Shown here: positions 4,917 to 21,474 of the stretch, one piece after another
How positions within the stretch are numbered: position 1 is the first letter of the stretch
How the letters are laid out: each line of letters starts with the position of its first letter
Origin: an uncultured bacterium
Lineage (GTDB): Bacteria > Planctomycetota > Phycisphaerae > Phycisphaerales > UBA1924
NCBI GenBank assembly: GCA_963976235.1
Contig: CAXBJM010000009.1
Coordinates: 8,393-72,392, forward strand
DNA length: 64,000 bases
Direction of reading: 5' to 3'
The notes under the pieces: model-generated
Databases searched by the model: none
What the model was told of the DNA's origin: nothing
Seen by the model: the letters and a program-made list of their open reading frames with translations, nothing else
Position numbers and translations under genes: made by a program

Positions 4917-5510
4917 CTATTGGGGAGCGGGTTGATTGGACTCGCGGCATTTTTCTTTATGGATGAGTCTGAGATTTCGAGCATAGATCACGATGCCGGT
5001 GGATTGTCCGAGGACACCAACTATGTCAACGCGCCAGACGAAGTAGGTGAAGAGGCAGATGCCTCCGATGAAACTGAACCACCAAAATATTTCGGGTACG
5101 GTGGAGACACGAGATTTTTCGGAGATGATCCATTGGATAAACATGCGCCCGAAGAATGCGGTTTGTCCGACGAGTCCGATGACGACCCACCCGAAGGTGC
5201 TCCAGGTGGTGATGTTGAAGAAACCAAGCAGGTGTCTTTCGATCGCGGGACGCTGGTTCCACTTGTCGACTTGCTGGGAAATGAATGCATCGAGTTCGAT
5301 CGGTGTGAGAAGTTGATCAGATCTGAGATTTGAGGGTCCAACGACTTGATATTGGAGTTGGCCGTCGATTTCTGATCGCATGAGTTGTATCTCAATAGCG
5401 CCTACAGAGACACTGAGATCCGTCTCCGCATGTGAAAGAGCGGGTTGAAGCACCAACCACATCCCCAGGAGCACCAGGAGGATCATCGCGATGATTGGTC
5501 CTGGTTTCAT
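4917..5510 (-). CDS. membrane protein with lipid-A-biosynthesis N-terminal (LAB_N) domain
   Basis: The C-terminal ~90 aa (FGWVVIGLVGQTAFFGRMFIQWIISEKSRVSTVPEIFWWFSFIGGICLFTYFVWRVDIVGVLGQ) look like the LAB_N 3-TM repeat. N-terminal signal/TM plus a ~95-aa extracytoplasmic segment. Overlaps the upstream GT2 stop by 4 nt. Confidence 0.7.
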   Translation of the reverse strand: MKPGPIIAMILLVLLGMWLVLQPALSHAETDLSVSVGAIEIQLMRSEIDGQLQYQVVGPSNLRSDQLLTPIELDAFISQQVDKWNQRPAIERHLLGFFNITTWSTFGWVVIGLVGQTAFFGRMFIQWIISEKSRVSTVPEIFWWFSFIGGICLFTYFVWRVDIVGVLGQSTGIVIYARNLRLIHKEKCRESNQPAPQ

Positions 5511-6331
5511 TGTGTGATGGTCTCCGCATGAGTGGGTTCTGCGATCTGTGGAGCGGTGATTTCGATGGATGTTACGGGCTTGCGTCGATTCCGCATATAG
5601 CGGACCGCGAAGAGGTCGATGAGTCCGGGGATTGCTCGTTTGGTGATCCCCATGCCGTACTTCGGGGTGCCCGCGTGACGGTGACGATGAGAAACGGGCA
5701 TTTCAACCACGGTGTATCCCATGTGACGAGCAGTTGCGGGGATGAATCGGTGCATGCCTTTGAACTCGAGCGGCAGGCGGAGTGCGACCTCGCGTTTCAT
5801 CACACGCAGGGAGCATCCGGTATCGGTGATGGTGTCCCCGAGTACCCAGAGTCGAAACTTGCGTCCGACCCATGATCCGAACTGGCGGATCTTTGCGTCG
5901 CCTTGTGATCGGGCAGCGGATCGGTCGCCTTGCACAAAATCCGCGTTCGATTCCTCGATGAGTTCGAGCATCGCGGGGATGTCTTTGGGATCATTTTGTA
6001 GATCCGCATCGAGCACCGCGATGAGATCGCCTTTTGCTGCACGGAAACCAGCATGGAAAGCAGCAGACTGCCCGTTGCCTGACCCATGGGGGGTATTGGT
6101 CATTGAAACGCATCGAACCCAGTTTTTTTGCGATTGATGGTCGATAATTTTCATTTTTGTGGTGTCGGTAGACCCGTCGTCCACGATGATGAACTCGAAG
6201 GCGATATTGAGCGGTGAGAGCGCATCTCCGACTTGTTTGATGAGCTCGTCGATATTTTCCTCTTCATTATGAGCAGGCGCAACCACAGAGAGTTTTATCG
6301 AAGATTTGGAAGAATTGAGGTGCGTGCTCAT
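5507..6331 (-). CDS. family 2 glycosyltransferase (polyprenyl-phosphate sugar transferase-like)
   Basis: LSVVAPAHNEEENI, IIVDDGSTDTT and DADLQNDP motifs typical of DPM1/ArnC-like GT2 enzymes. Confidence 0.85.
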   Translation of the reverse strand: MSTHLNSSKSSIKLSVVAPAHNEEENIDELIKQVGDALSPLNIAFEFIIVDDGSTDTTKMKIIDHQSQKNWVRCVSMTNTPHGSGNGQSAAFHAGFRAAKGDLIAVLDADLQNDPKDIPAMLELIEESNADFVQGDRSAARSQGDAKIRQFGSWVGRKFRLWVLGDTITDTGCSLRVMKREVALRLPLEFKGMHRFIPATARHMGYTVVEMPVSHRHRHAGTPKYGMGITKRAIPGLIDLFAVRYMRNRRKPVTSIEITAPQIAEPTHAETITQ

Positions 6332-6434
6332 GATGATTGTTTCGGAGTATCGTATCCGCTGAATATGGTTCCTAGGATTGATCTTAGTAGCCCTTTTACC
6401 AGGATGGTTCCAAAATCCTGAGGAGATAGCAGAT

Positions 6435-6839
6435 ATGCATATGCGTCATTCAGATCACGATCACGGCCCGGAAACTGTTCATGTCAAGATCATCCTTGAG
6501 AATCCAGAAGAACTCAATGAAGATGGTTCGGATAAGGCGGTTCATGAGTTGATGGCTGCCAAAGGCGAGCATCTCCTCGAAGTCGCGATTGAGCACGGAA
6601 TCAACATCGAGCATTCCTGCGGCGGCGTGTGTGCCTGCTCAACCTGCCACATCTATGTCGAGGAAGGCATGGATATGGTCTCGGAAGCAGAGGAAGAGGA
6701 AGAAGATCGGGTCGAAGAAGCACCAGGTCTTCAGATGAACTCTCGGTTAGCATGTCAGTGTGATATCACCGGAGACGGCCCAATTGTCTTCCGGGTCCCA
6801 TCATGGAACCGGAATGCGGTCAAAGAAGTCCCGCATTAA
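6435..6839 (+). CDS. adrenodoxin-type [2Fe-2S] ferredoxin
   Basis: C-x5-C-x2-C in SCGGVCACSTCH plus the distal SRLACQC cysteine. AGGAGA at 6421-6426 precedes ATG 6435. His-rich N-terminal extension (HMRHSDHDHG). Confidence 0.85.
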   Translation: MHMRHSDHDHGPETVHVKIILENPEELNEDGSDKAVHELMAAKGEHLLEVAIEHGINIEHSCGGVCACSTCHIYVEEGMDMVSEAEEEEEDRVEEAPGLQMNSRLACQCDITGDGPIVFRVPSWNRNAVKEVPH

Positions 6840-6874
6840 GCGAGAATCGACCATCTAGGCGATATCCTATAGGC

Positions 6875-8452
6875 ATGAATCGTCTTCCCACTATCAAATA
6901 CATTTTTGTTTCGCTCATCTTCGCAATGGGGGCATCGTTGTGCTTTAGCGGGACGATGCTTGCTCGCACCGGACCAACAGATGATATTGTGGAATCCGTT
7001 TGGGTATCAATGCGGGTGAAAGTTCCTGCACCTGATGCGATGGGTAACGCGATTGGTGACACAAAGGGATTCGGGCTTGTGCTGATTGATCCTGATCAGG
7101 GTGCGATCGATGATGAGTTTGTGTGGGATGAACCCAACACCGATCATTCGATCGCGATCGGTTTCGATGTTCATAATCCGCAACCAAATCAAGAGGCCGA
7201 TGAGAATGGTCGGGTGATGGGTTGGTTCGATGCGCTGGGTAACTGGTACGATCGGCCTCAACGCGAGGTGTCGGTGCATGTGAATGGACGCGAGCGGATC
7301 AATGTGCTCAGTGATGTCGAGTTCCGCACGGGTGAGTGGATGGATGTGATGGTCCAGGTCCGTTTTGTGCTCGGCGGAGCACATGTCATGGTGCTCATTG
7401 ATGGGCAGGTCGTGATCAGTCAAGATGTTTGGCAAGTTGAACCCATGCGTCTTCATGCGATGGCGGGTGTCGAGGGGGATGCGATCGAGATCGAAGATCT
7501 ATCGATTGTGCATGCAGGATTGCTTGAAGAATCAATGCCAAAACCTGTGCATGTGGAAGTCTTCGCCGAGGAGTTCTTGGCAAATGCAAAGCGTCTCAAA
7601 TCGGATGTTGATTTTGATGCGATCCCGGAATCAGTTGGACGGGTCATCGCGACCCTGACGCTATCTGAGCCTGAGGTTGGGTATGACCACTGGGATAAAA
7701 AAGGCACAATCGGTATGAGCGTTCCCAGCGGGGTTGAGGGGGAGGAAGCGGAACGGTTTGAGGTGTTCCGGTTTATTACTCCATTCCGTCGCGGATGGAC
7801 CTGGTATATGGATGTGACGGACTTCATGCCTTTGTTCCGTGATCAGCGTGCGTTTGATGCGCATATCGGGACTTATATGAAAGGGTGGAATGTTTCCTTT
7901 GGGTTGGATTTCTATCCGGGTACTCCAGAACGCTCGCCGATCGAGGTGGTGAACTTATGGAACGGGAATGCAGATATCGGCGATCCAGAAAAACCAGTTC
8001 ATGAGTTTTATCGAGCGCGTGAGATCACAGTGCCTCAAGGAACAACGCATGCACGCGTGCGGGCAACTGTAACCGGTCACGGGATGCATCCCAACTCGAA
8101 AAACGCGGGTGAGTTCATGCCGATCTGGCGGACCATGACGATCAGTTCGCAGGAATCTGGGGGGGATGTGCTCGCGGGTGATTTTATAACACAATCATCG
8201 CGTGATCATCTCTGGATGACGGATGTGTATTTGAATCCTTGTCGGCCTCAGGGCGGGACATGGAAGTTTGATCGCTCGGGTTGGGCGCCGGGATCGAAGG
8301 TTGAGCCTTGGATTGTTGATGTCCAACGCGAGTTCGTGTTTGGAGATACAGTCACGATCGAGTACGAACTCGATGAATACCTCAACGAAGGGCGAGGCGA
8401 GACCTGGGCGCCGCACCATTGGACCGATGCGGTCATCGTGTTTTACAAATAA
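6875..8452 (+). CDS. secreted protein with PNGase F-like C-terminal half (tentative)
   Basis: Signal peptide after M at 6875. The C-terminal ~270 aa carry motifs I associate with peptide-N-glycosidase F-type domains (DHWDKKGTIG, TVTGHGMH...AGEF, DRSGWAPGSKVEPW). Recognition by eye only. Confidence 0.5.
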   Translation: MNRLPTIKYIFVSLIFAMGASLCFSGTMLARTGPTDDIVESVWVSMRVKVPAPDAMGNAIGDTKGFGLVLIDPDQGAIDDEFVWDEPNTDHSIAIGFDVHNPQPNQEADENGRVMGWFDALGNWYDRPQREVSVHVNGRERINVLSDVEFRTGEWMDVMVQVRFVLGGAHVMVLIDGQVVISQDVWQVEPMRLHAMAGVEGDAIEIEDLSIVHAGLLEESMPKPVHVEVFAEEFLANAKRLKSDVDFDAIPESVGRVIATLTLSEPEVGYDHWDKKGTIGMSVPSGVEGEEAERFEVFRFITPFRRGWTWYMDVTDFMPLFRDQRAFDAHIGTYMKGWNVSFGLDFYPGTPERSPIEVVNLWNGNADIGDPEKPVHEFYRAREITVPQGTTHARVRATVTGHGMHPNSKNAGEFMPIWRTMTISSQESGGDVLAGDFITQSSRDHLWMTDVYLNPCRPQGGTWKFDRSGWAPGSKVEPWIVDVQREFVFGDTVTIEYELDEYLNEGRGETWAPHHWTDAVIVFYK

Positions 8453-10997: not shown

Positions 10998-11003
10998 TAG
11001 CGT

Positions 11004-12803
11004 CTATTTGAGTTGATCGAAGTTGTCCGCGTGGATGGTGAGTCTGCCGGGCTCGGGTTGGTCGGGGATCATGCGTCGAGGCCAGGCGGTGTGGGTTTTC
11101 GATGCGTCGGTGCGTTCGAGGCCGAGTTGGAGAATGTCGTCATGATCGAAGGCGTTCTCGGGGAGATCGATCATTGCAATCCAACGATCATCGAGGATCC
11201 GGATTTGTACATGCGGAATCCCGATCGAGAGCATTGAACCCGCATCAAATGTAACCTGACCCGACGGCGTGATTGTCCAGACAGCGAATGGGTTGGTGTA
11301 TGGACCAACCCAGAGGGTGAGTGATTCGTTTAAACTTGCAGGGTCAGGCGTCGTGAGTTCCATGTAGAGTTGCCAGTTTGTGGTCGGATTTGATCGTGTT
11401 GGTGCGCCGACTCTGCGGAGAATCCCCACACTTGATCGGTTGAGACTCGGGGATGCACCTTCGAGTGGTCTGTTGGCAAGCAATGCGTTCATTGTCCAGT
11501 CATTGAGCATCGGTCCGATCCGGACATACGGTGCGCGTGCCGGGGTAGGGGATGCGATCGCGTTCAGGGTCGTGCTCCAATTGCCGGTACGGATGCGAAT
11601 AGGTTGAGTCTCAATATTTGGATTGGTAGGAGAGAGTAAGATCGGATCGATTGGGATCGTGATCGGTGTTGCAATATGTGCACTGAGTGTAGAAAGTTGA
11701 GGCGAACTGGTTGATGATTCAGTCGCGTCCACTCGCATTAAGGATGATCCGGGGGTCTGTGGGCGAGCAATTGCGGTGATCGTTGGGATGAAACGATTCG
11801 TGTCTGCTTCGATTTGTCCTTGATCATCCGTGATCCATGCGAGGGCGCGGGGTTGGTTCTCGAGCCAAGCCTGAGCGCGGAGCATTCGGATTCGGTCGTC
11901 CACAAACGGGGAAAGAAGGTCATGGGCGAGTTGGGCGAGATCTGTGTTGTCGAGTGTCCAGAGTGGGAGGATGCGTGTGTTGAACTGTGCGGTCGCGATG
12001 AGTTGGGATTTGAGTCTGATCGCGACGGACGGATCGATGAGCCAGATTCGGCCGAGAATGATCTGCCAGCGGGCGATGGATTGATGGGAAATCTCACGCA
12101 GGATATCGGCGCCTGGGGTGTTCATTGCGAGCTCGAGTTCGAGGGTTTCGAGATGATCGCCTTGCGATGATGTTCGAGCACTCGGGGCGAGCCCGTCGGT
12201 AAGTAGGTGTGCGCGCCAGTTGGAGAAAGGGTTGTGGTGGTACTGATCGATTGCGTATTGCACCGCGGGGTCTGCGAGCGCATCCTCCGGGAGATGGAGT
12301 GACCAGAATGAGTTGAGCTCGGATTGTTGGGTTGGGGTGATTGCTTCGAGCTTGGCGCGCTCGGGGTCTGGGAGCCAGTTGAGTTCGTAACGCTGCGATC
12401 CGAACCAGAGACCTTGTCCGACAGCGTCAATCGGGAGGGCGATGCGGATGAACCATGTTCCACGAGGACGCTGATTGATAGGGATTTGTGAGATGGTCTC
12501 GTAATCCGTCGCGGTCCAGATCCCCGCGGGGGGTGTCCAAGCGCTTGGCGAGGGTTGCGGGGTGCGTCCGATCCAGAAGGGTTGTGAGGAGATAACTCGC
12601 CCATCATCGAGTTTGGTGATGATATCTTTGCGGAGATCGCGTTCGTTTTCACTCACGATCGCGATGGTGAGTGGATACGAAACAATCGCGTCGAGTCGAT
12701 CCGTTGCCGGGCGGATTGTTTGGGCATTCGTGGATTGTGCAAAAACAGCGAGAGAGAGGGTAAGACTCACAATCAAGTAACGGAATGAGCTAAACATGGG
12801 CAT
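11004..12803 (-). CDS. secreted hypothetical protein
   Basis: 599-aa ORF with a signal peptide (MPMFSSFRYLIVSLTLSLAVFAQSTNAQT). No family recognised. Confidence 0.6.
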   Translation of the reverse strand: MPMFSSFRYLIVSLTLSLAVFAQSTNAQTIRPATDRLDAIVSYPLTIAIVSENERDLRKDIITKLDDGRVISSQPFWIGRTPQPSPSAWTPPAGIWTATDYETISQIPINQRPRGTWFIRIALPIDAVGQGLWFGSQRYELNWLPDPERAKLEAITPTQQSELNSFWSLHLPEDALADPAVQYAIDQYHHNPFSNWRAHLLTDGLAPSARTSSQGDHLETLELELAMNTPGADILREISHQSIARWQIILGRIWLIDPSVAIRLKSQLIATAQFNTRILPLWTLDNTDLAQLAHDLLSPFVDDRIRMLRAQAWLENQPRALAWITDDQGQIEADTNRFIPTITAIARPQTPGSSLMRVDATESSTSSPQLSTLSAHIATPITIPIDPILLSPTNPNIETQPIRIRTGNWSTTLNAIASPTPARAPYVRIGPMLNDWTMNALLANRPLEGASPSLNRSSVGILRRVGAPTRSNPTTNWQLYMELTTPDPASLNESLTLWVGPYTNPFAVWTITPSGQVTFDAGSMLSIGIPHVQIRILDDRWIAMIDLPENAFDHDDILQLGLERTDASKTHTAWPRRMIPDQPEPGRLTIHADNFDQLK

Positions 12804-12955
12804 AAGCTTGCTTTGGTGGACGATTTTGGTGTGTTTTGTATTTTTCTGTCAGCCGACAGGTGGGTTTGTGGGTATATCAGTATATACGGCTGACCGTTCC
12901 GGCATGGATTGATTCTGTGTCGATCGAGGGCAGCTCATATCAAAGGAGAATCGCC

Positions 12956-13423
12956 ATGAAGTCTATATATACGCAACATTCACCGAACCGTTCCCTCGGC
13001 AAGTTCAAAGCGGTCATGTTCTCCGCAGCGGTGCTCTCGATGGGGATGCTCGGCGGGTGTGACAATGCAGGTGAAGGACTCTTCTCTGGTGCAGCACTCG
13101 GAGCTGTGACAGGACTCGTGATCGGTTCGATGAGCGGTGATGCAGGTGAAGGCGCTGCGATCGGCGCGGTCCTCGGTGGTGCAGGTGGGGCGATCGTTGG
13201 AGACCAGAACGAGCGGAATCGGAATAATGCACGATATGGATCGTATGAGTATGACAGCCGACCCAGGTATCGAAGTGAGTATCGGGCGGGGTACCGGAGA
13301 GGTCCTGTGCGGCCTCCATATTGCTCAACCCACCGGGTGTATCACATCCATCATTCCCACAGTGGTTCCCATCATCGTGCAAATGGGCATGGATATGGGT
13401 ATGCAGAGTGGTGGAATGACTGA
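12956..13423 (+). CDS. glycine-zipper lipoprotein with R/Y/H-rich tail
   Basis: AAGGAG precedes ATG 12956. Lipobox MLGGC. Glycine-zipper stretch GAALGAVTGLVIGSMSGDAGEGAAIGAVLGGAGGAIVG. C-terminal RYGSYEYDSRPRYRSEYRAGYRRG...HHIHHSHSGSHH. Confidence 0.6.
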   Translation: MKSIYTQHSPNRSLGKFKAVMFSAAVLSMGMLGGCDNAGEGLFSGAALGAVTGLVIGSMSGDAGEGAAIGAVLGGAGGAIVGDQNERNRNNARYGSYEYDSRPRYRSEYRAGYRRGPVRPPYCSTHRVYHIHHSHSGSHHRANGHGYGYAEWWND

Positions 13424-13480
13424 TTAGACGCAAGTTTTCGCATACTATGCTTGGCTTGAACTCTTATTAGGATACCAGCC

Positions 13481-15292
13481 TTGCATATTCGAAACTTTTC
13501 CATCATCGCCCATATTGACCACGGTAAATCTACGCTCGCGGATCGGTTGCTCCAAGCGACCAACGCGGTGTCGGACCGCGAAGCGAAAGCGCAGCATTTG
13601 GACTCAATGGATCTCGAACGCGAGCGCGGGATCACGATCAAAGCGTCCGCGGTGACTGTTATGCACACGCATAACGGCGAACAATACATGCTCAACTTTA
13701 TTGATACCCCGGGTCATGTGGACTTCGGGTATGAAGTATCTCGTGCGCTCAAGGCGTGTGAAGGTGCGTTGTTGATTGTTGATGCGTCGCAGGGTGTTGA
13801 AGCGCAGACGGTTGTGAATACTTATCTCGCGGTTGAGCAAAACCTTGAGATCGTCCCGGTGTTGAACAAGATTGATTTGCCTGGTGCGCGTCCCGATGAG
13901 ATCGCGGATGAAGTCGAGCAGGTCCTTGGGATTGATGCGATGGAATGTATCCCTGTGAGCGCGAAAACGGGTCAGGGGATTCCGGAGTTGCTCAATGCGA
14001 TCTGTGATCGGTTCCCGGCGCCTGAGCCGCCAAAGATTAAGGAAACACGGGCGCTGATCTTTGATGCGGTGTACGACGATTACCGTGGCGTGATCGTGTA
14101 CTGCCGGGTATTCGATGGCAAGCTCACAGTGGGTGACAAGATCCGCATGATGGGGATCGATCGGACATTTAGTATTACCGAGCTTGGTAAGTACACCCCG
14201 AAGCAAGAGAAACATAAAGTGATCGGGCCGGGTGAGACTTGTTACCTCGTCGCCGCGATCAAGAACCTGAGTGAAGTGCGTGTCGGCGATACGATCACGA
14301 TCGATCACAACCCCGCAGCCGAGGCGCTCGAAGGGTATGAACCACCTTCGCAGATGGTGTTCTGTGATTTCTATCCTTCAACGACAGAGATGAAGGGCAA
14401 TAGCTTTGAAGAACTCCGCGATGCGATGGAGAAGTTGATCCTCAATGACTCGTCGTTTAGTTTCCAAGCGGTGCACTCTGAAGCACTCGGATTTGGATTC
14501 CGGTGTGGGTTCTTGGGGTTGCTCCATATGGACATTATCCAGGAACGACTTGAGCGCGAAGGCGGCGTTGAGGTCATCCAGACAGCGCCGACGGTATCGT
14601 ACAAGATCAAAATGCGTGGCAAACGCAACGAGATTCTCGAAAAAGAGATCCACAACCCGGCGGACCTTCCGGATGCAGGGTTGATTACCGAGTTCAGCGA
14701 ACCGATCTGTAAGGTCGAGATCATGACCCCCGGTGAGTACATCGGCGAGATTATGAAGTTATGTATGGAACGACGCGCGGTGTTTAAGAATCAGGCGTTT
14801 GTTTCGCACGGGCGAGAGATGCTGAGCTTTGAGGTGCCGTTGGCGGAGATCATCTTTGATTTCTATGACAAGCTCAAGGGGATATCGCAGGGTTACGCGA
14901 CGATGGATTATGAAGTGATCCGATTCGACAAGAACGAACTGGTCAAGGTTGCGATCTTAATCAACAACGAACCGGTCGAAGCGCTGTCGTTGATCTGTCA
15001 TCGTGATCGGGCGGTGGCGCGTGGGAAGATTCTGTTGACCAAACTGAAGAAGCAGATCGATCGTCATCAGTTCGAGATCCCGTTGCAAGCTGCGATCGGT
15101 GGGAAGATCATCGCACGCGAAACGATCAAGGGGTTCCGCAAGGATGTGACCGCCAAATGTTACGGCGGCGACATCTCGCGTAAACGCAAGCTGCTCGAAG
15201 CTCAGAAGAAGGGCAAGAGCAAGATGAAGTCGATCGGGTCGGTGAATATCCCACAGAAGGCGTTCATGGCGGTGCTTGATACCGGGGAGTGA
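13481..15292 (+). CDS. lepA: elongation factor 4 (LepA)
   Basis: IRNFSIIAHIDHGKSTLADRLL G1 motif, DTPGHVDF, NKIDL and the LepA-specific C-terminal domain. TTG start. Confidence 0.95.
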   Translation: MHIRNFSIIAHIDHGKSTLADRLLQATNAVSDREAKAQHLDSMDLERERGITIKASAVTVMHTHNGEQYMLNFIDTPGHVDFGYEVSRALKACEGALLIVDASQGVEAQTVVNTYLAVEQNLEIVPVLNKIDLPGARPDEIADEVEQVLGIDAMECIPVSAKTGQGIPELLNAICDRFPAPEPPKIKETRALIFDAVYDDYRGVIVYCRVFDGKLTVGDKIRMMGIDRTFSITELGKYTPKQEKHKVIGPGETCYLVAAIKNLSEVRVGDTITIDHNPAAEALEGYEPPSQMVFCDFYPSTTEMKGNSFEELRDAMEKLILNDSSFSFQAVHSEALGFGFRCGFLGLLHMDIIQERLEREGGVEVIQTAPTVSYKIKMRGKRNEILEKEIHNPADLPDAGLITEFSEPICKVEIMTPGEYIGEIMKLCMERRAVFKNQAFVSHGREMLSFEVPLAEIIFDFYDKLKGISQGYATMDYEVIRFDKNELVKVAILINNEPVEALSLICHRDRAVARGKILLTKLKKQIDRHQFEIPLQAAIGGKIIARETIKGFRKDVTAKCYGGDISRKRKLLEAQKKGKSKMKSIGSVNIPQKAFMAVLDTGE

Positions 15293-15293
15293 A

Positions 15294-16316
15294 ATGATTA
15301 ATGAAGAAACTGTAATTGTATTAGGTGCAGGTGCTTCATTTGATTATGGGTTGCCACTAGGCCCTCAACTCACTGAGAAAGCAGTTGAATTTTTGCATCG
15401 TCATCAAGAAACCAAATTTGATGATTGGGCTGAGATAGAGACTGATTTGAATGGATATAGCAATCTGGCAAAGATTCTGCAAAAATCGCGAACGCCAACG
15501 CTTGATGCATTTATAGAGAAAAACAATACATTCGCTCCGCCACTCAAAGCGGCGATTGCAGGTGTTTTACTTGAACTCGAAGATAAAGCGATATCCTCGA
15601 TGGAGTTTCCAGATGGAGATTGGGTTTCGTGGTTGTATCACAACAGGATGGAGTCGTGTCCAGAGTCTTTCAAAAATAATCGATTGTCGTTTGTGTCATT
15701 TAATTATGATAGAATTCCGATGGCGTTGTTTGCGAGGTTTATGGCAAATACTCATCAGGTAGACATCGAACATTCACTGCGAATTGTGAGCGGGGCAATG
15801 GCTCACGCTTTGCCTCAGGAAAATTTTGGGCATGTGCCTGATGATGTTCACATCGAGCGGTTTATTCATGTGCATGGTCAGGTGGGAACTGAGTTGAAGC
15901 CTAGAGGCACTACAGAAATGTATAGCCAGAGTGTAAATGTAGACAATACGATGCTTCAGTCGATAGATTCTTCTAGAAAAGTCAATGGGAAATATCTTAA
16001 TGATATATCAAAAAATATCGTAACCATTTCGGAAAACGAGAAGATGCCTGATGAGAACGCATATGCGAGGATGAAAATATTGCTATCGCGTGCGTCAAAA
16101 ATAATTATCCTGGGTCTTGGTTATCACGATAAAAATCTCGATAAAATCGGATTAACCTCTGAGTTTGTGAAATCTAACCGTCTCAAATTTATTGGAGGCA
16201 CAGGAATTGGATTGGGTCAAAAAGATCGAGATAGATTACTAAACAGATTTGGGTCAAAATTTAAGATTGGTGATGATAAGCAAGATTGCTTGTCATTCCT
16301 GCAAGAATATTTTTAG
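15294..16316 (+). CDS. SIR2-like (SIR2_2-type) domain protein, stand-alone
   Basis: 340 aa with ordered landmarks GAGAS (aa 11-15), FNYD (136-139), HVHG (192-195) and LGLGYHD (273-279). Strongly AT-rich compared with both flanks. ATG lies 1 nt after the lepA TGA, with GGGGAG upstream. Confidence 0.7.
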   Translation: MINEETVIVLGAGASFDYGLPLGPQLTEKAVEFLHRHQETKFDDWAEIETDLNGYSNLAKILQKSRTPTLDAFIEKNNTFAPPLKAAIAGVLLELEDKAISSMEFPDGDWVSWLYHNRMESCPESFKNNRLSFVSFNYDRIPMALFARFMANTHQVDIEHSLRIVSGAMAHALPQENFGHVPDDVHIERFIHVHGQVGTELKPRGTTEMYSQSVNVDNTMLQSIDSSRKVNGKYLNDISKNIVTISENEKMPDENAYARMKILLSRASKIIILGLGYHDKNLDKIGLTSEFVKSNRLKFIGGTGIGLGQKDRDRLLNRFGSKFKIGDDKQDCLSFLQEYF

Positions 16317-16348
16317 TTGGGTTTAATCGATTCAGCTATGGAGTTGAA

Positions 16349-17032
16349 ATGGACAAGGCACTCGCAGATCCCAAAGCAACCAGCTATCGACTCTTCATCT
16401 TGGCCGTGTCGGTACTCTCGTTGTTGGTCATTGCGGCGATGATGTTGGTGCCAATGGATGAAGAGACCTATCGGCTGATGGGGTTGATTGATGTGGTTGC
16501 GTGTTCGGTGTTCTTTGCAGATTTTCTTCGTCAGTTGTATAAGGCCGAGTCTCGCTCGCGGTACTTCTTTACTTGGGGTTGGTTGGATTTGATCGCGAGT
16601 ATTCCCAGCGTCGATGCGTTTCGATGGGGGCGAGCGATTCGATTGGTGCGGGTGGCGCAACTGTTACGGGGTGTGCGATCGGGGCGGCACCTGATGCGGA
16701 TTCTTGGGTACTACCGTCGACGCAGCGCTGCAGCAGTCTCAGGGTTGATCGCGTTTTTATCGATCACGATTGGGAGCATGGGGATCTTGCACTTTGAGTT
16801 GGGTGTTGAGGATTCTAACATCCGCACAGCGGAAGATGCGATTTGGTGGGCGTGGGTAACGATTACAACAGTGGGATATGGCGATTACGCACCCGTGACG
16901 ACCGGCGGACGGATCGTTGCGATGGTGTTGATGGTTGTGGGGGTTGGGTTGTTCAGTTCAATGAGCGGTTTGATCGCGAGTTGGCTTTTACAGCCGCCGG
17001 ATGATGAAAAATATGTATTTGAAAGCGAATGA
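16349..17032 (+). CDS. 6TM voltage-sensor-type potassium channel
   Basis: K+ selectivity filter TTVGYGD. S4-like helix with spaced arginines (RWGRAIRLVRVAQLLRGVRSGRH). Six predicted TM segments. No cytoplasmic RCK or CNB domain. Confidence 0.85.
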   Translation: MDKALADPKATSYRLFILAVSVLSLLVIAAMMLVPMDEETYRLMGLIDVVACSVFFADFLRQLYKAESRSRYFFTWGWLDLIASIPSVDAFRWGRAIRLVRVAQLLRGVRSGRHLMRILGYYRRRSAAAVSGLIAFLSITIGSMGILHFELGVEDSNIRTAEDAIWWAWVTITTVGYGDYAPVTTGGRIVAMVLMVVGVGLFSSMSGLIASWLLQPPDDEKYVFESE

Positions 17033-17045
17033 TGAGGAGAATGGA

Positions 17046-18335
17046 ATGATGAATCGAATTATTCATGGACTAGTTTATTGGGTTGTTGGTATCGGATTGA
17101 TGATTGGCAGCGTTGGGTGTTCTTCTTCCCAATCGTTTCAGACGCATGCGGATCGGTTGTCGATTTCTCCGGTGGGCGGAGAATCGGTTGAGCTGCCTGC
17201 GGAGTTTGATGGGTATCAGGTTGTGTTGGATGTGATGCTTAATGGGACTGGGCCGCACCGGATGATTCTTGATACGGGGAGTGCGGTGTCGCAGGTTCCC
17301 CCGGAGGTTGCCAAAGCTGCGGGGATTGGAGCGAGCGGGCATGTGCGTACGCTTGATGCGCATGGGAATGTGAACAAAGAACCCATCGGGTTGGTGAGCA
17401 GTGTTGAGATTGGTGGATTAGTGGGGCACGGCGTGCCGTTCACGATTGATCGGTTGCCTGAGCGGATCGCGGAGGGACCAAAGATCATCGGGATCATCGG
17501 GTACAACATGTTTCGGAATCACACACTGACATTGGATTATCCCAATGAGCAGGTATTTGTGAGTCATGCGAGATTGGATGCAGATTCGATCGGGACGGTA
17601 CCGATGTGGTTAGAGAATGGTCGAGTGCCGTTTATTGATGGGGGGATGGTCATCCCGGGATCGAAGGGGACACTTCCTTGTGATATGTTGATCGACACGG
17701 GGAGCGGTGCTTTGCTCAACTTGTCGGGGATGCACGCACAGGTGTACAGCGACTTGGAAAACAAAGTCGAGGTTGGTGTGTCAATGTCCTCGAGTGGCAC
17801 GGTTGAACCCAATGAGTATGCGAGGTTGATCTTTGACCTTGGATTTCAGGGGATCTATGCGCGGAACCTGATGGCGATTGTGAGCCGAAGCACGAGAAGT
17901 GATTCTTCAATTGGTGGCGAGTTCATGCGTCGATTTCGGGTGAGTCTTGATCCGGTTGGTAAGCATTTTCGGGTTGAACTCTCCGACGGAAGGACAGAGA
18001 TTGATATGCCGATCTGGCGGGTCCATGGTATCGGAATTCGGCTCAATGAAGATGATCAGTTTGTGGTGCGGAGTGTTGTCGAGGGTTCACCAGCAGAACT
18101 CGGCGGGGTTCAAGAAGGGGATGTGTTGCTCGCGTTTGATGGGGTCCCTCTCACGCTTGAACCTTTTAATTGGCCGGGACCGGTGCTTGATAATTCGCTC
18201 GAGCAGCGAGCGTATCTGATTTCGCGCGATGGTGCAGAGCAAACACTTGTGCTTGCTTTCCAAGATTTCATTCCGATCCCGAAGATGAAGTTGATGTTGC
18301 GAGATGCTGCGGATCAGGGTGTGAAACAGCCTTAA
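17046..18335 (+). CDS. lipoprotein with two retropepsin-like aspartic protease lobes and a C-terminal PDZ domain
   Basis: GAGGAG precedes ATG 17046. Lipobox SVGCSSS. Two D-T-G-S motifs (ILDTGSAVS, LIDTGSGAL). PDZ-like GSPAELGGVQEGDVLLAFDG. Confidence 0.7.
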   Translation: MMNRIIHGLVYWVVGIGLMIGSVGCSSSQSFQTHADRLSISPVGGESVELPAEFDGYQVVLDVMLNGTGPHRMILDTGSAVSQVPPEVAKAAGIGASGHVRTLDAHGNVNKEPIGLVSSVEIGGLVGHGVPFTIDRLPERIAEGPKIIGIIGYNMFRNHTLTLDYPNEQVFVSHARLDADSIGTVPMWLENGRVPFIDGGMVIPGSKGTLPCDMLIDTGSGALLNLSGMHAQVYSDLENKVEVGVSMSSSGTVEPNEYARLIFDLGFQGIYARNLMAIVSRSTRSDSSIGGEFMRRFRVSLDPVGKHFRVELSDGRTEIDMPIWRVHGIGIRLNEDDQFVVRSVVEGSPAELGGVQEGDVLLAFDGVPLTLEPFNWPGPVLDNSLEQRAYLISRDGAEQTLVLAFQDFIPIPKMKLMLRDAADQGVKQP

Positions 18336-18341
18336 GAATAG

Positions 18342-18887
18342 TTAGTAGCGCAGTTGAACTGTTCGTACATGGCGACCGTCTTTGAGAAGAACCGCGTAGA
18401 AGTGGTCGAAACTCGTTTCTTTGAGGTCCTCGAATGTGGGGCCACCCAGTGCGGTGATGATGGTGGGGACGGTGTTGGAGTGGGCGATGACCAGAGTGGT
18501 GTTGGTGTCTTCGAGTGCTTTGATGGTGGTCGCGAGTCCGATTGCGTCGAGTGCGGGGTAGACGGTTGATGGGATACCGGTCGCGGCGGAAGTTGGCGCT
18601 GCGGTTTGGGAAGAGCGTAGGGTGTTGGTGACATAGATCGCGCCGAGTTCTTCGTCTTGGATCATGTTGGCGAGTGAAAGCGCGCGGGCTTGGCCCTGGG
18701 CGTTGAGGTTCGGGTTGTTGCCTGTGTTTGGAGTTGTGTCCGCATGTCGGACCACGAAAATGAGCTGGGTGGTTGCGAGATCAATGGGGTTATTGGTGAC
18801 GGGTTGTTTCTGATAAGTTGGTTGGGTGAAACCCAGGATCGCGATGATTCCAGCCGCGAGGATTCCGAAAAGAGTGATTGATTTCAT
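18342..18887 (-). CDS. histidine phosphatase family protein (SixA/PGM-like), secreted
   Basis: RHA motif in IFVVRHADT and a downstream VIAHSNTV histidine. N-terminal signal/TM. Confidence 0.7.
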   Translation of the reverse strand: MKSITLFGILAAGIIAILGFTQPTYQKQPVTNNPIDLATTQLIFVVRHADTTPNTGNNPNLNAQGQARALSLANMIQDEELGAIYVTNTLRSSQTAAPTSAATGIPSTVYPALDAIGLATTIKALEDTNTTLVIAHSNTVPTIITALGGPTFEDLKETSFDHFYAVLLKDGRHVRTVQLRY

Positions 18888-18938
18888 GTGATGGTTTCCT
18901 GTGATAAATAGGGATTGATCTTACGATTTTACCATACC

Positions 18939-19670
18939 TTAAGTGAACTTGGCACCCTTTGATTCAAAGTAACTTCCAAGTCCTTCGCGGGCAGCGTAAC
19001 TGAATTTTTTCTCTATGGATGCGGACCAGGTGTTTGGTTTGGCCCCGCGTTGTTCAAGATATGCTCTGTATGCGTCATCATACTGGTCTATGTTCGCGAT
19101 TGTTTGAGTATCGCTTGGGTATTCGTTCTCGAAGAGCATGGATTGTTGAGCAAATCGCGGACGATGTGACGGGGTCTCTGCGGGGACTCCGACGCATAGG
19201 CCGTAGAACGGGAGAACGCCTTCTGGGAGATTGAGGAGTTTGTCGAGTTGAGGCAGGTCGTTGCGGATCCCCCCGATGTAGCATGTGCCGTATCCGAGTG
19301 ATTCGAATGCGAGCGTGAAGTTCTGTGCAAAGAGTGACGCGTCGATGGATGCAACGAGAAATGCCTCTAAGCTTGATTTGTAGGGTGTGTCTGCGCGATC
19401 GAGTACGAGCATGTGTTTGCGGAGATCGCCGCAGATGATGAAGAATGCGGGGCAGTCGCGGACTTTCTGTTGTGGTCCGCACAGGTCGGCGATGACTTGG
19501 CGTTTGTCATCGTCGGTGATGTGGAGCACGCAGTATGGTTGGACTGCAGATGAGGTTGCCGCTGCTTGTCCGCAGAGCATCGCTTCGTCGATGTGTGATT
19601 GGGGTATTGGATCGTTTGTATAGGTACGGATCGATCGATGAGCTCGGATGGTTTCTATGGTTGGATTCAT
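18939..19670 (-). CDS. nfsA: oxygen-insensitive NADPH nitroreductase, NfsA-like
   Basis: The N-terminus MNPTIETIRAHRSIRTYTNDPIP aligns closely to E. coli NfsA (MTPTIELICGHRSIRHFTDEPIS). Length also matches. Confidence 0.85.
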   Translation of the reverse strand: MNPTIETIRAHRSIRTYTNDPIPQSHIDEAMLCGQAAATSSAVQPYCVLHITDDDKRQVIADLCGPQQKVRDCPAFFIICGDLRKHMLVLDRADTPYKSSLEAFLVASIDASLFAQNFTLAFESLGYGTCYIGGIRNDLPQLDKLLNLPEGVLPFYGLCVGVPAETPSHRPRFAQQSMLFENEYPSDTQTIANIDQYDDAYRAYLEQRGAKPNTWSASIEKKFSYAAREGLGSYFESKGAKFT

Positions 19671-19810
19671 GGGATAAGGGTAGGTGCGTGAGGTGATTAA
19701 GAAACTCTGAAAACATGACTGCTTGAGGATCGAGGCGCATCACTGGATGTACGCAGTGCGGGATTGGTACGGTTATGTATCAATAGATCCGTATTCAAGC
19801 AGGAGAAATC

Positions 19811-20629
19811 ATGAATACGAAGAGAACATCAGGTTGGGATGCGCCGGCAGGATCCGTTGACATCAAGACCATATTGGCGATTGCGTTCGCGGTCGGTGGA
19901 TTGTCATGGGGTGCCTATTCGATGCTCTCAGGAGGGGGACCTGAGAAGAAAAAGGAACCTCGCGTGATCGCATCAGCATTGGACAGTAATGGAAACGAGG
20001 TCGAACCCGAATACACAAAAGCGAAAAGCGCCAAGCAGGTTGGTCAGATTCAAGATGAGCTTGCAGAACTGGTTACGGATCAAGCTCGGTCAACATTGAA
20101 CGAGATTCAAGTGCCTAAGGGAGTACCTGATGGTGTGAGTGATGCGGTGATACATGCGTTCATTCCAATCTTGAGTGGTGATTACGATTCATTTACAGAC
20201 GCGATCCTCGCGATGGGTGGCAAACTGAGTGATAATCTCGATAAGGACCATCCGATTTTTACGAACTTGGCAAAGGTGTTCGAGGGCGCGAAGGTAGATT
20301 TAACTCGGATCAGTGTTTCAAAGTATGAAGCGCCTGATGGCAGACGCACACAGATGCGCCGGGAGGTGAATACCGATGATGTGGATACTCAACCAGGCAA
20401 CTCGTCGATGAGATCATCAGTGATGGAGATGCAACCTGCGTCATTGTTCCCCGATGCGCCAAGCAAGAGCGATGACACTGCGATCGAAGTCAGTATCCCG
20501 GTCCAACCCAAAGGCGAAACGAACGAAGTGATCTTTTCACTGATTCTCACTTGGAACCCCGAAGCGAGGCACTGGCAACCCGCAGCGTATCGCACGATCC
20601 GCAATATGTTGATGGAGGACGAGGGATGA
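19811..20629 (+). CDS. membrane-anchored hypothetical protein
   Basis: 272-aa ORF with one N-terminal TM helix. Its stop overlaps the start of the next gene (ATGA at 20626-20629). Confidence 0.55.
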
Positions 20630-21474
20630 ACACACCATACAAAGAACATAATAGAAACAGCAGATTCAAGCGCATGCATGGTTTTACGCTGATTGAGTTG
20701 CTTGTGGTCATCGGGATCATTGGATTGTTGATCGGGATTCTTCTCCCGGCATTGTCGGGCGCAAGAAGTTCTGCGCTCCAAACTGTGGCGATGAGCAATG
20801 TACGATCGGTTGGGACACAGTTCGAGCAGTTTGCCGGTGAACGGGGTGCGTATCCGCATCAGAATCTGGGGGAACTTCCTCGGAGTTTACAGGATGAAGA
20901 GGATGTGTACGAACCTGTCGGCGATGAACTGATTATCGAGTGGTATCCGGGTGGAGTGATTATTGCGACGACGGATTACTTTGGGCATAGCTGGATGTGG
21001 CCTGCGATGATTGCGCCGCTTGATGATTGGCCTGATTACTGGGAGACATGGATATCTCCGCGTAAAGATGAAGAGTTACCAAAGCTTGAATCGATCGGGG
21101 TTGATCCTGAGTTTCGTTTCGATGAGGTTATTTCTGTTCAGTATTCCAACTCGTTTGTGACGCGTGCGAGCTATTGGAATGGCGAACAGACTTCTACGGA
21201 TTTTGATTTGCTCAGATCTACCCGGCCTCACGATGTGCGGTATGCATCGAGCAAGGTGATGCTCTGGGATGATGATCTGTCATATTTGGTTGGTAAGAAA
21301 ACACCCGAGCGGATTGATGGGTTGCTCAATGCGAAGACCCCGATGGGGTTTGCCGATGGGCACGCGGAGATGCTGTTACCGAGTGATGCGAGCGATGGGG
21401 TTGAGAATCCTATGACGCGTCAAACGATCAAGTTGCACAACACGAAGGATGGGGTGCAAGGCCGAGATTATTAA
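20626..21474 (+). CDS. prepilin-type N-terminal cleavage/methylation domain protein, DUF1559 (H-X9-DG) family
   Basis: [26 protein letters not shown] pseudopilin leader and C-terminal [10 protein letters not shown]. Confidence 0.8.

Follow-up and report, generated by a model that had tools for sequence, protein, structure and literature searches.

A stand-alone SIR2-like gene in a variable slot behind lepA of Phycisphaerales belongs to a large family of compact, partner-less proteins

We analysed a stretch of 64,000 nucleotides (nt) from the genome of an uncultured member of the Phycisphaerales (GenBank assembly GCA_963976235.1, contig CAXBJM010000009.1, positions 8,393 to 72,392 of the forward strand), hereafter the window, in which a gene for a stand-alone SIR2-like protein directly follows lepA. 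An initial annotation, made from the sequence alone, had placed this gene on an inserted AT-rich islet and had offered an NAD+-depleting immunity module, an effector with an unlinked sensor or a non-defence deacylase as its possible roles. The extent of the open reading frame (ORF) and the distances to both neighbours were verified as initially read. The lepA stop codon TGA occupies 15290–15292, a single spacer base (15293) separates it from the ATG of the SIR2-like gene at 15294–15296, and the TAG at 16314–16316 is followed 32 nt downstream by the ATG of an ion-channel gene at 16349 (Table 1). Beyond the channel gene lies a gene for an Asp-protease/PDZ protein and then, on the opposite strand, genes for a histidine phosphatase and a nitroreductase. 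LepA, the histidine phosphatase and the nitroreductase carry ordinary Pfam domains only, and the neighbouring gly-zipper, channel and Asp-protease/PDZ proteins had no match in PADLOC.

The SIR2-like gene differs from its surroundings in base composition. Its G+C content (GC) is 0.397 and its GC at third codon positions (GC3) is 0.362, compared with 0.529 and 0.665 for lepA and 0.529 and 0.610 for the channel gene. Sliding GC drops to 0.36–0.44 only over approximately 15200–16400, with flanks of 0.50–0.58. Against the background of 56 non-overlapping ORFs of at least 150 amino acids (aa) in the 64-kb window (GC 0.516, standard deviation (s.d.) 0.028; GC3 0.549, s.d. 0.051), it is the sole ORF with a GC below 0.45 and lies approximately 4 s.d. 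under the mean. The compositional step at the gene borders, estimated by hand in the initial annotation, was thus borne out by the sliding GC, by the GC and GC3 of the flanking genes and by the comparison of ORFs. The fraction of Phe, Tyr, Met, Ile, Asn and Lys residues (FYMINK) is nearly equal in the SIR2-like protein and LepA (0.31 vs 0.29), indicating that the AT bias is synonymous and is not driven by amino-acid content. We found no promoter-like or terminator-like sites at either junction of the gene. The islet is flanked by no repeats beyond matches of chance size, and no integrase or att-like sequences were found, in agreement with the earlier reading.

Table 1 Features of the lepA-downstream locus, in positions of the window; motif residues are numbered along the SIR2-like protein.
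Feature	Position	Strand	Description
Stand-alone SIR2-like (predicted sirim-type) gene	15294..16316	+	340 aa; single domain
lepA (EF4)	13481..15292	+	Pfam GTP_EFTU 5.7e-57, LepA_C 7.3e-47, EFG_C; conserved left anchor of the slot
Ion-channel gene	16349..17032	+	227 aa; Pfam Ion_trans 7.4e-18, Ion_trans_2 5.4e-17; right-hand frame gene
Low-GC islet	15293..16348		SIR2-like ORF and 32-nt 3' spacer; occupant of the lepA-downstream slot
Putative coupling junction	15284..15296	+	GGGGAG (Shine-Dalgarno-like, in the lepA Gly-Glu codons), TGA, one base, ATG; read from sequence
GAGAS (aa 11-15)	15324..15338	+	Glycine-rich NAD-binding loop after strand 1; invariant 54/54; aligns to KomC GAGVS, ThsA GAGLS
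FNYDR (aa 136-140)	15699..15713	+	xxNxD motif; putative catalytic Asn137, Asp139; aligns to KomC TTNYDR, ThsA TTNYD
HVHG (aa 192-195)	15867..15878	+	Putative catalytic His192; aligns to HG of KomC and ThsA
LGLGYHDKN (aa 273-281)	16110..16136	+	Strand/loop late in the Rossmann fold; counterpart of the SIR2 motif G-x-S/FLGxS

We compared the SIR2-like protein to known families and structures. The Pfam search proposed in the initial annotation failed for the single sequence, with no match even at E ≤ 10, including SIR2_2 (PF13289), SIR2 (PF02146) and AbiH, and a scan of NCBIfam at the same threshold was also empty. Single-sequence phmmer against the Protein Data Bank (PDB) returned only an off-register match to a SIR2-like protein and chance tubulin matches. 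The proposed PADLOC search succeeded, the SIR2 model PDLC04087 matching the protein over aa 2–282 (1.1e-8), and the Aga_SIR2 models of PADLOC match its N-terminal ~40 aa only (E ~3e-3). In the alignment of 54 sequences that we used to assess conservation, Pfam SIR2_2 is matched by 35 of the relatives (E ≤ 0.01; best 2.3e-7) and PDLC04087 by 51. The family sits at or past the edge of the Pfam SIR2_2 model. A profile built from the family matched KomC (8zsf, 2.8e-5) and ThsA (7uxt, 8.5e-4) in the PDB, aligned at GAGxS, NYDR and HG; the KomC H146N mutant structure 9xvc is also among the profile matches.

An AlphaFold2 model, predicted with the family alignment, is confident (predicted local distance difference test (pLDDT) of 91.7, predicted TM-score (pTM) of 0.90), and the 29 Foldseek matches in the PDB listed at E ≤ 1e-3 are all SIR2-fold proteins. 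The best match is the SIR2 subunit of SIR2-HerA (8uae/8sub, E 9e-7 to ~1e-6, TM 0.44–0.47), followed by SPARSA SIR2, CobB/Sir2Tm, KomC, DSR2, ThsA and human FAM118B, with CobB and Sir2Tm being weaker structural matches (TMq of 0.34–0.39). These modest TM-scores indicate a divergent SIR2 fold which is not closely related to any solved protein. A structural search of BFVD gave weak viral sirtuin matches only. The model contains a helical insert at aa ~55–128, as in the Rossmann-type SIR2 fold of sirims, which has its NAD pocket where a variable helical insert joins, and a clade-specific insertion at aa ~170–232, which is predicted with lower confidence. Jointly, the PADLOC match, the SIR2_2 matches of the relatives, the profile match to KomC and ThsA, and the AlphaFold and Foldseek results establish that the protein has a divergent SIR2 fold.

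Within this fold, the NAD-pocket and catalytic motifs follow one another in canonical order, as initially proposed, and their positions (GAGAS 11–15, FNYD 136–139, HVHG 192–195 and LGLGYHD 273–279) were confirmed, the alignment columns being invariant or at least 90% conserved. Invariant in all 54 sequences are GAGAS, G23, D71, F136, N137, Y138, R140, G195, G274 and N281, while D139, H192, L273, G276 and Y277 are conserved in at least 90%. The LGLGYHDKN segment is aligned with FLGYSMYD in 9jap, a SIR2-like protein, and with FLGFSFED in ThsA. Immune sirims are distinguished from deacylating sirtuins by the lack of a Zn-binding Cys tetrad, by usually at least seven strands and by GxG and xxNxD motifs (Bonhomme et al., 10.1101/2024.09.18.613514). 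The SIR2-like protein contains two cysteines (C122 and C332), so that it has no Cys4 Zn site, and it carries both motifs, GxG as G11-A-G13 and xxNxD as F136-N137-Y138-D139. DSSP assigns 10 strand segments to the model, of which approximately 7 could line the central sheet, a count taken from the secondary-structure string and not from the three-dimensional sheet. By fold, motifs, lack of a Zn site and this approximate strand number, the predicted protein is sirim-type. Neither the protein nor any of the 54 relatives matched PF02146, the classical sirtuin/CobB family. The deacylase role offered initially is disfavoured, given the two cysteines and approximately seven or more strands, compared with six in the sirtuin type.

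Next, we explored the wider family. A homolog search returned 841 proteins which, besides five closer relatives, are ~300 aa in length and 25–30% identical. A profile search of 1.84 billion representatives of 50%-identity clusters gave 12,354 matches at E ≤ 1e-3, 9,695 at ≤ 1e-10 and 6,594 at ≤ 1e-30. Almost all of the top 150 have 295–330 aa and align end to end, thus the compact, unfused architecture is the rule. The SIR2-like protein of the window is a longer member of this family with clade-specific insertions. Neither Pfam nor NCBIfam has a name for the family, and its members are labelled 'hypothetical' in the source databases. The stand-alone character noted initially holds in the window, where there is no SLOG, HerA, pAgo, STAND or TIR partner or fusion, and extends to the family, which is unfused and has no recurrent neighbour.

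We then examined 76 metagenomic loci of the wider family. Clustering of the neighbours revealed no protein family present in more than three of the loci, and none of the 76 places the family gene beside lepA. The GC of the family gene has a median 6.6 points under that of its flanks, and the difference exceeds 3 points for 73% of the genes. Of 59 upstream neighbours, 43 point in the same direction as the family gene and 25 lie within 100 nt of it. The contexts include GmrSD-like and NERD genes, hypothetical genes, the lpxB-priA interval in an Anaerohalosphaera metagenome-assembled genome (MAG; locus L009 in our numbering), a ThsB-like TIR gene and kdsB, and some members closely and co-directionally follow kdsB, lpxB or an epimerase gene. 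A PADLOC scan of 148 flanking proteins, from which 25 of 107 families were listed, gave single occurrences of Shedu SduA, type I restriction-modification subunits, a type II restriction endonuclease, pAgo with Aga_SIR2, PDC-S19 and PDC-S31; with single occurrences and no background control, no enrichment is claimed. No recurrent defence neighbour was found among the matches listed. In addition, 19 viral or prophage contigs of IMG/VR carry family members.

Two kinds of arrangement recur or stand out among these loci. In three metagenomic contigs (L144, L148 and L152), the family member lies between a KdsB-like gene, which it follows directly (gap of -3 to 37 nt), and a more distant pyrG on the downstream side (the family gene of L144 is at ~5001–6044), and the family is repeatedly the tail-end gene behind housekeeping genes. 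In L012, which is on the same contig as L098, a ThsB-like TIR gene (5076–5969, PADLOC ThsB 3.7e-7) ends 32 nt upstream of the gene for a 308-aa SIR2 member (6001–6927). This pair is inserted among housekeeping genes (chlorite dismutase-like, cysS and ispF) and may be a Thoeris-like pair with a SIR2 protein that lacks the SLOG domain.

The closest homologs of the SIR2-like protein share its location. They follow lepA immediately, have equally low GC and are succeeded by syntenic genes, and the lepA loci closest to that of the window are all from Phycisphaerales MAGs. The nearest is 57% identical (P0002, L001); a second (L013) is 54% identical over 125 aa before its contig ends; and three more are 40% (P0003, L002), 38% (P0004, L003) and 35% (P0006, L173) identical, all behind lepA. 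A 27%-identical gene in L061 starts 7–10 nt after lepA and has its best matches among proteins of the same sub-clade. Thus, including the window, the sub-clade gene lies behind lepA in seven genomes. Members of the main family, a different lineage, were found 14–50 nt after lepA in L092 and 1.9 kb downstream of it in L058.

To place these in context, we collected LepA from GTDB species representatives, giving 80 Phycisphaerales loci with LepA identities of 64–95%. Among them the sub-clade gene is present in L013 and L061 only, L092 and L058 carry the main-family members, and all other species lack a SIR2-like gene at the locus, including ones with LepA 87–93% identical. The frame in the closer relatives consists of a 599-aa protein, the gly-zipper protein, lepA, the slot, an optional channel and Asp protease, the histidine phosphatase and the nitroreductase. 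Between lepA and the downstream anchors, the distance ranges from ~0.8 kb to 4.4 kb, and GC is often low immediately past lepA. The slot is empty in L028, where the channel coding region starts ~46 nt after lepA; elsewhere it holds a DUF4279 protein, a sulfotransferase and many ORFans of 190–470 aa. As most of the 80 related species have other cargo or nothing, we regard the lepA 3' end as a hypervariable accessory slot.

The ion channel was considered as a functional partner of the SIR2-like protein and rejected. Its gene lies outside the islet and has normal GC; it stands next to lepA without a SIR2-like gene in L028, follows different cargo in L018 and is missing beside the SIR2-like gene in L002. 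The channel is no partner of the SIR2-like gene.

Further occupants of the slot were observed. Proteins of ~110–120 aa with an N-terminal membrane anchor, in two or three families without a Pfam match, are found in approximately nine Phycisphaerales species, often as tandem pairs. They occur in L015, L019, L022 and L031, where they are the first ORF after lepA, and in L014, L016, L035 and L041, and some share a '...LKGTE(S/T)R...' motif. Since these families are missing from the window and from all loci that carry the SIR2-like gene, they look like alternative occupants of the slot. A conserved IS200-like Y1 transposase of 171–176 aa lies in the slot of four species (L020 at 7284–7796, L021, L027 and L035), 400–650 nt after lepA. 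It matches Pfam Y1_Tnp (3.1e-5), has the N-terminus MPVKHYDIPNQARFLTYSCFDRLPLF, resembles domesticated REP-associated tyrosine transposases and might contribute to the variability of the slot. In L044, a two-gene PADLOC candidate system lies on the minus strand right after lepA (6844–8311), comprising PDC-M24B (3e-14, with DUF1828) and a weak match to PDC-M24A (5e-3).

The age of the SIR2-like gene in the slot was assessed from sequence divergence. Between the same genome pairs, the SIR2-like proteins are 54–57% identical; among the neighbours, the identity of the 599-aa protein is 59%, that of the gly-zipper protein 46%, that of the histidine phosphatase 48%, that of the nitroreductase 68% and that of LepA 91–95%. 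The SIR2-like protein has diverged to an extent comparable to its ordinary neighbours. Sub-clade genes always have a lower GC than their hosts (mean offset of -0.124), and gene GC shows a weak, non-significant rise with host GC (r = 0.62, p = 0.13, n = 7). In a host tree of the nitroreductase, a single-gene neighbour-joining tree without bootstrap that was used for patchiness only, SIR2-positive and SIR2-negative genomes are interleaved. A recent insertion was rejected, with same-site orthologs in seven genomes and neither repeats, integrase nor att-like sequences, and a core gene was equally rejected, since most of the 80 related species have no SIR2-like gene at the locus. The inserted islet of the initial annotation therefore stands as a low-GC islet and falls as a recent foreign arrival, as orthologs (57, 54, 40, 38, 35 and 27% identical) occupy the same spot in six other genomes; the comparison of lepA-downstream synteny that it had called for showed a variable presence, as expected of a non-core gene. 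The SIR2-like gene has long resided in a variable slot, and either ancient residence with repeated loss or cassette exchange between relatives, via recombination in the conserved flanks, may account for its distribution; both fit the data.

The junction with lepA is conserved. The last codons of lepA (...Thr-Gly-Glu-stop) carry a motif that resembles a ribosome-binding site, and the arrangement GGnGAG-TGA-n-ATG is kept in four of the seven sub-clade loci (the window, L001, L002 and L013). Unrelated first cargo genes also start 0–10 nt past the lepA stop (L015, L018, L019, L022, L023 and L035), with a TGATG overlap in L019 and TGA-ATG in L022; some of the starts called at -3 are artefacts, produced by the GTG inside GAGTGA. 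That unrelated cargo starts at the lepA stop suggests that the Gly-Glu-stop end (GGnGAG-TGA) is a shared ribosome-binding site. From the junction sequence, the SIR2-like gene appears to be translationally coupled to lepA.

We compared the protein and its locus to known SIR2 systems. SIR2-HerA (Nezha) is the best structural match and is similar in size (340 vs ~380–400 aa), with an immune-type SIR2 that lacks a Zn site. The PADLOC models named 'SIR2' (343–390 positions) match the query and 51 of the 54 relatives; we take these models to be part of the SIR2-HerA definition of PADLOC. However, identity is 11–15% and TM is below 0.5, and the Nezha SIR2 needs HerA for activation, whereas no HerA gene was found beside the gene of the window or, among the neighbour matches listed, in the ~90 family loci examined. 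Among solved structures, KomC of Kongming gives the best sequence-profile match (8zsf) and is likewise short (264 aa) and without a fused sensor. The match is limited to the motif regions, KomC being ~75 aa shorter, and in Kongming a modified nucleotide triggers KomC, which acts together with KomA and KomB, whereas the neighbours of the window gene are lepA and an ion channel.

ThsA and DSR1/DSR2 share the SIR2_2-type catalytic core (N...H) and NAD+ depletion as the expected chemistry, and they appear among the matches (7uxt, 8bto and 8y3m). ThsA has a SLOG or Macro sensor and needs ThsB, whereas the SIR2-like protein is single-domain with no further Pfam domain, and there is no TIR gene within ~5 kb of it in the window. 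DSR proteins are ~1,000 aa with a large C-terminal sensor, compared with 340 aa here and 295–330 aa in the family, and, unlike in SPARSA, there is no pAgo in the neighbourhood of the gene in the window. Lacking HerA, a SLOG or Macro domain and ThsB, a large C-terminal sensor, pAgo, and KomA and KomB, the SIR2-like gene does not belong to SIR2-HerA, Thoeris, DSR, SPARSA or Kongming. The conceptually closest precedent is AbiH of Lactococcus (PF14253), a single-gene, ~350-aa abortive-infection protein, which is predicted to be sirtuin-like and has no known mechanism (PMC13064643). AbiH is a different family, as the query has no match to it in Pfam (E ≤ 10) or PADLOC and 2 of the 54 relatives match it weakly at 1.6e-3. 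A literature search gave no direct match for a described stand-alone SIR2 system.

The slot itself resembles core-gene-flanked hotspots, such as the Pseudomonas cDHS and those of E. coli, in lying between conserved genes and holding different low-GC cargo in each species, including SIR2-like genes and the PDC-M24 candidate pair. It differs in being tiny (0–4 kb, usually one to three genes) with mostly unannotated cargo, the first of which often starts within ~10 nt of the lepA stop, and in having no integrase or att-like repeats. No direct match for a described lepA hotspot was found in the literature search.

We propose that the SIR2-like protein is an autonomous, NAD+-consuming abortive-infection effector, a prediction to which we assign a probability of roughly 55%. 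By analogy with Thoeris, DSR, SIR2-HerA, SPARSA and Kongming, we infer that it would consume NAD+ on infection. The effector would be kept inactive in healthy cells and switched on by phage infection, through either direct binding of a phage component or oligomerisation, like other defence SIR2 proteins, which typically form filaments or rings. NAD+ would then be hydrolysed in the Asn137/Asp139/His192 pocket and the infected cell halted. With no promoter of its own, the gene would be transcribed together with lepA, and ribosomes that end lepA may start on the SIR2-like gene at GGGGAG-TGA-A-ATG, while the synonymous AT bias probably keeps the expression of a potentially toxic protein low. Accessory or defence-like behaviour is suggested by the family GC below that of the flanks, the single defence neighbours, the 19 viral or prophage contigs, the absence of the gene from the locus in most relatives and the interleaving of SIR2-positive and SIR2-negative genomes in the nitroreductase tree.

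Several observations weigh against this proposal. No sensor is evident in the protein, and we know of no characterised precedent among SIR2 systems for sensing and execution by a single ~300-aa domain. The structural similarity to solved proteins is modest (TM of 0.35–0.47), and the protein itself has no Pfam or NCBIfam match. Most family members lie among housekeeping genes and not in recognisable defence islands, the defence-gene neighbours are single occurrences with no background control, and what otherwise fills the lepA slot is mainly ORFans and not known defence genes. Furthermore, the gene has strictly kept its place behind lepA across seven genomes, even at 27% identity, which could mean a functional tie to lepA.

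The lack of an obvious separate sensor domain in the 340-aa protein raises an alternative, which we consider fairly unlikely, that it is an effector only, an NADase fired by a diffusible signal or by a sensor encoded elsewhere, as KomC is by the nucleotide made by KomA/B and ThsA by the signal made by the TIR protein. KomC, the best sequence-profile match in the PDB, is itself a 264-aa protein without a fused sensor that works with partner proteins, and a ThsB-like TIR gene (PADLOC ThsB 3.7e-7) precedes one distant family member by 32 nt. However, this TIR pairing was seen once and no partner recurs in the 76 loci, no suitable candidate is present within 10 kb in the window (64 kb of genome covered), and a family of more than 6,000 clusters whose members are nearly always alone argues for autonomy.

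The constant position behind lepA would also fit an NAD-dependent enzyme outside defence (for example a deacylase, ADP-ribosyltransferase or NAD-linked regulator) whose function is linked to the lepA operon, or to translation and stress physiology, in this Phycisphaerales sub-clade. All sub-clade members with visible context, in seven genomes and down to 27% identity, lie directly behind lepA with a coupling-type junction; other family members closely follow kdsB, lpxB or an epimerase gene in the same direction, and many have no defence genes nearby. We regard such a role as distinctly unlikely, as the protein lacks a Cys4 Zn site and has sirim-type features, the gene is missing from most related species, where other cargo or nothing follows lepA, and, in 80 metagenomic loci, the wider family shows no lepA linkage. 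Moreover, low GC and patchiness are typical of accessory genes, and the slot is also used by a second lineage of the family (L092) and by unrelated genes. A gene without current function, either hitch-hiking or decaying and kept in a tolerated gap behind lepA, is highly improbable: the atypical codon usage, the fall in identity between genomes from 57% to 27% and the many ORFans tolerated in the slot would suit it, but the frame is intact in all nine lepA-associated copies examined (seven of the sub-clade, L092 and L058), the family has invariant catalytic and NAD-binding residues, the predicted fold is confident, and the divergence from the nearest relatives (54–57%) equals that of ordinary neighbours (59%, 46% and 48%).

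We put forward two linked ideas, as a speculation that we think unlikely to hold as a whole. The first is that the lepA 3' end forms a shared 'expression dock', in which the Gly-Glu codons of lepA (GGnGAG) and the stop codon may provide a ready ribosome-binding site for promoter-less accessory cassettes. Such cassettes (at least two SIR2-like lineages, small membrane proteins, the DUF4279 protein and ORFans) may be swapped by recombination between the conserved flanks and expressed via lepA coupling. The second is that the ~300-aa SIR2 family combines an autonomous sensor and effector in one domain, which may make it a minimal SIR2 immune module.

SIR2 NADases are central effectors of bacterial immunity, with relatives in human innate immunity (FAM118B/SIRal). 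To our knowledge, all SIR2 systems whose mechanism is understood include a sensor, as a fused domain or as a partner protein. SIR2 defence effectors are well known, and broad censuses of sirims probably already include such proteins among predicted antiphage proteins. A SIR2 family of this size (thousands of clusters at 50% identity), made up of ~300-aa proteins that are unfused and lack a conserved partner, has no described mechanism. If its members protect alone, they would reveal how infection is sensed by a SIR2 domain alone, and would offer a minimal model of activation; if they do not, they would point to unlinked signalling partners still to be found. The lepA-downstream slot also provides a simple natural presence/absence system in marine Phycisphaerales, an order in which few defence genes have been characterised and whose phylum is under-studied; the SIR2-like protein is also present in Tara data.

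Finally, we note some features of the window around the slot. The mechanically called channel ORF starts with TTG at 16286, overlapping the 3' end of the SIR2-like gene, and homologs in L018 and L001 favour the ATG at 16349. The Asp-protease/PDZ ORF (17001–18335) overlaps the 3' end of the channel gene by 32 nt (17001–17032) if its first ATG is used. Across 11000–21000, GC skew is positive in almost every 300-nt interval regardless of gene strand and the cumulative skew climbs steadily. This trend fits the + strand being the leading strand over this region, and the SIR2 islet leaves it unbroken.

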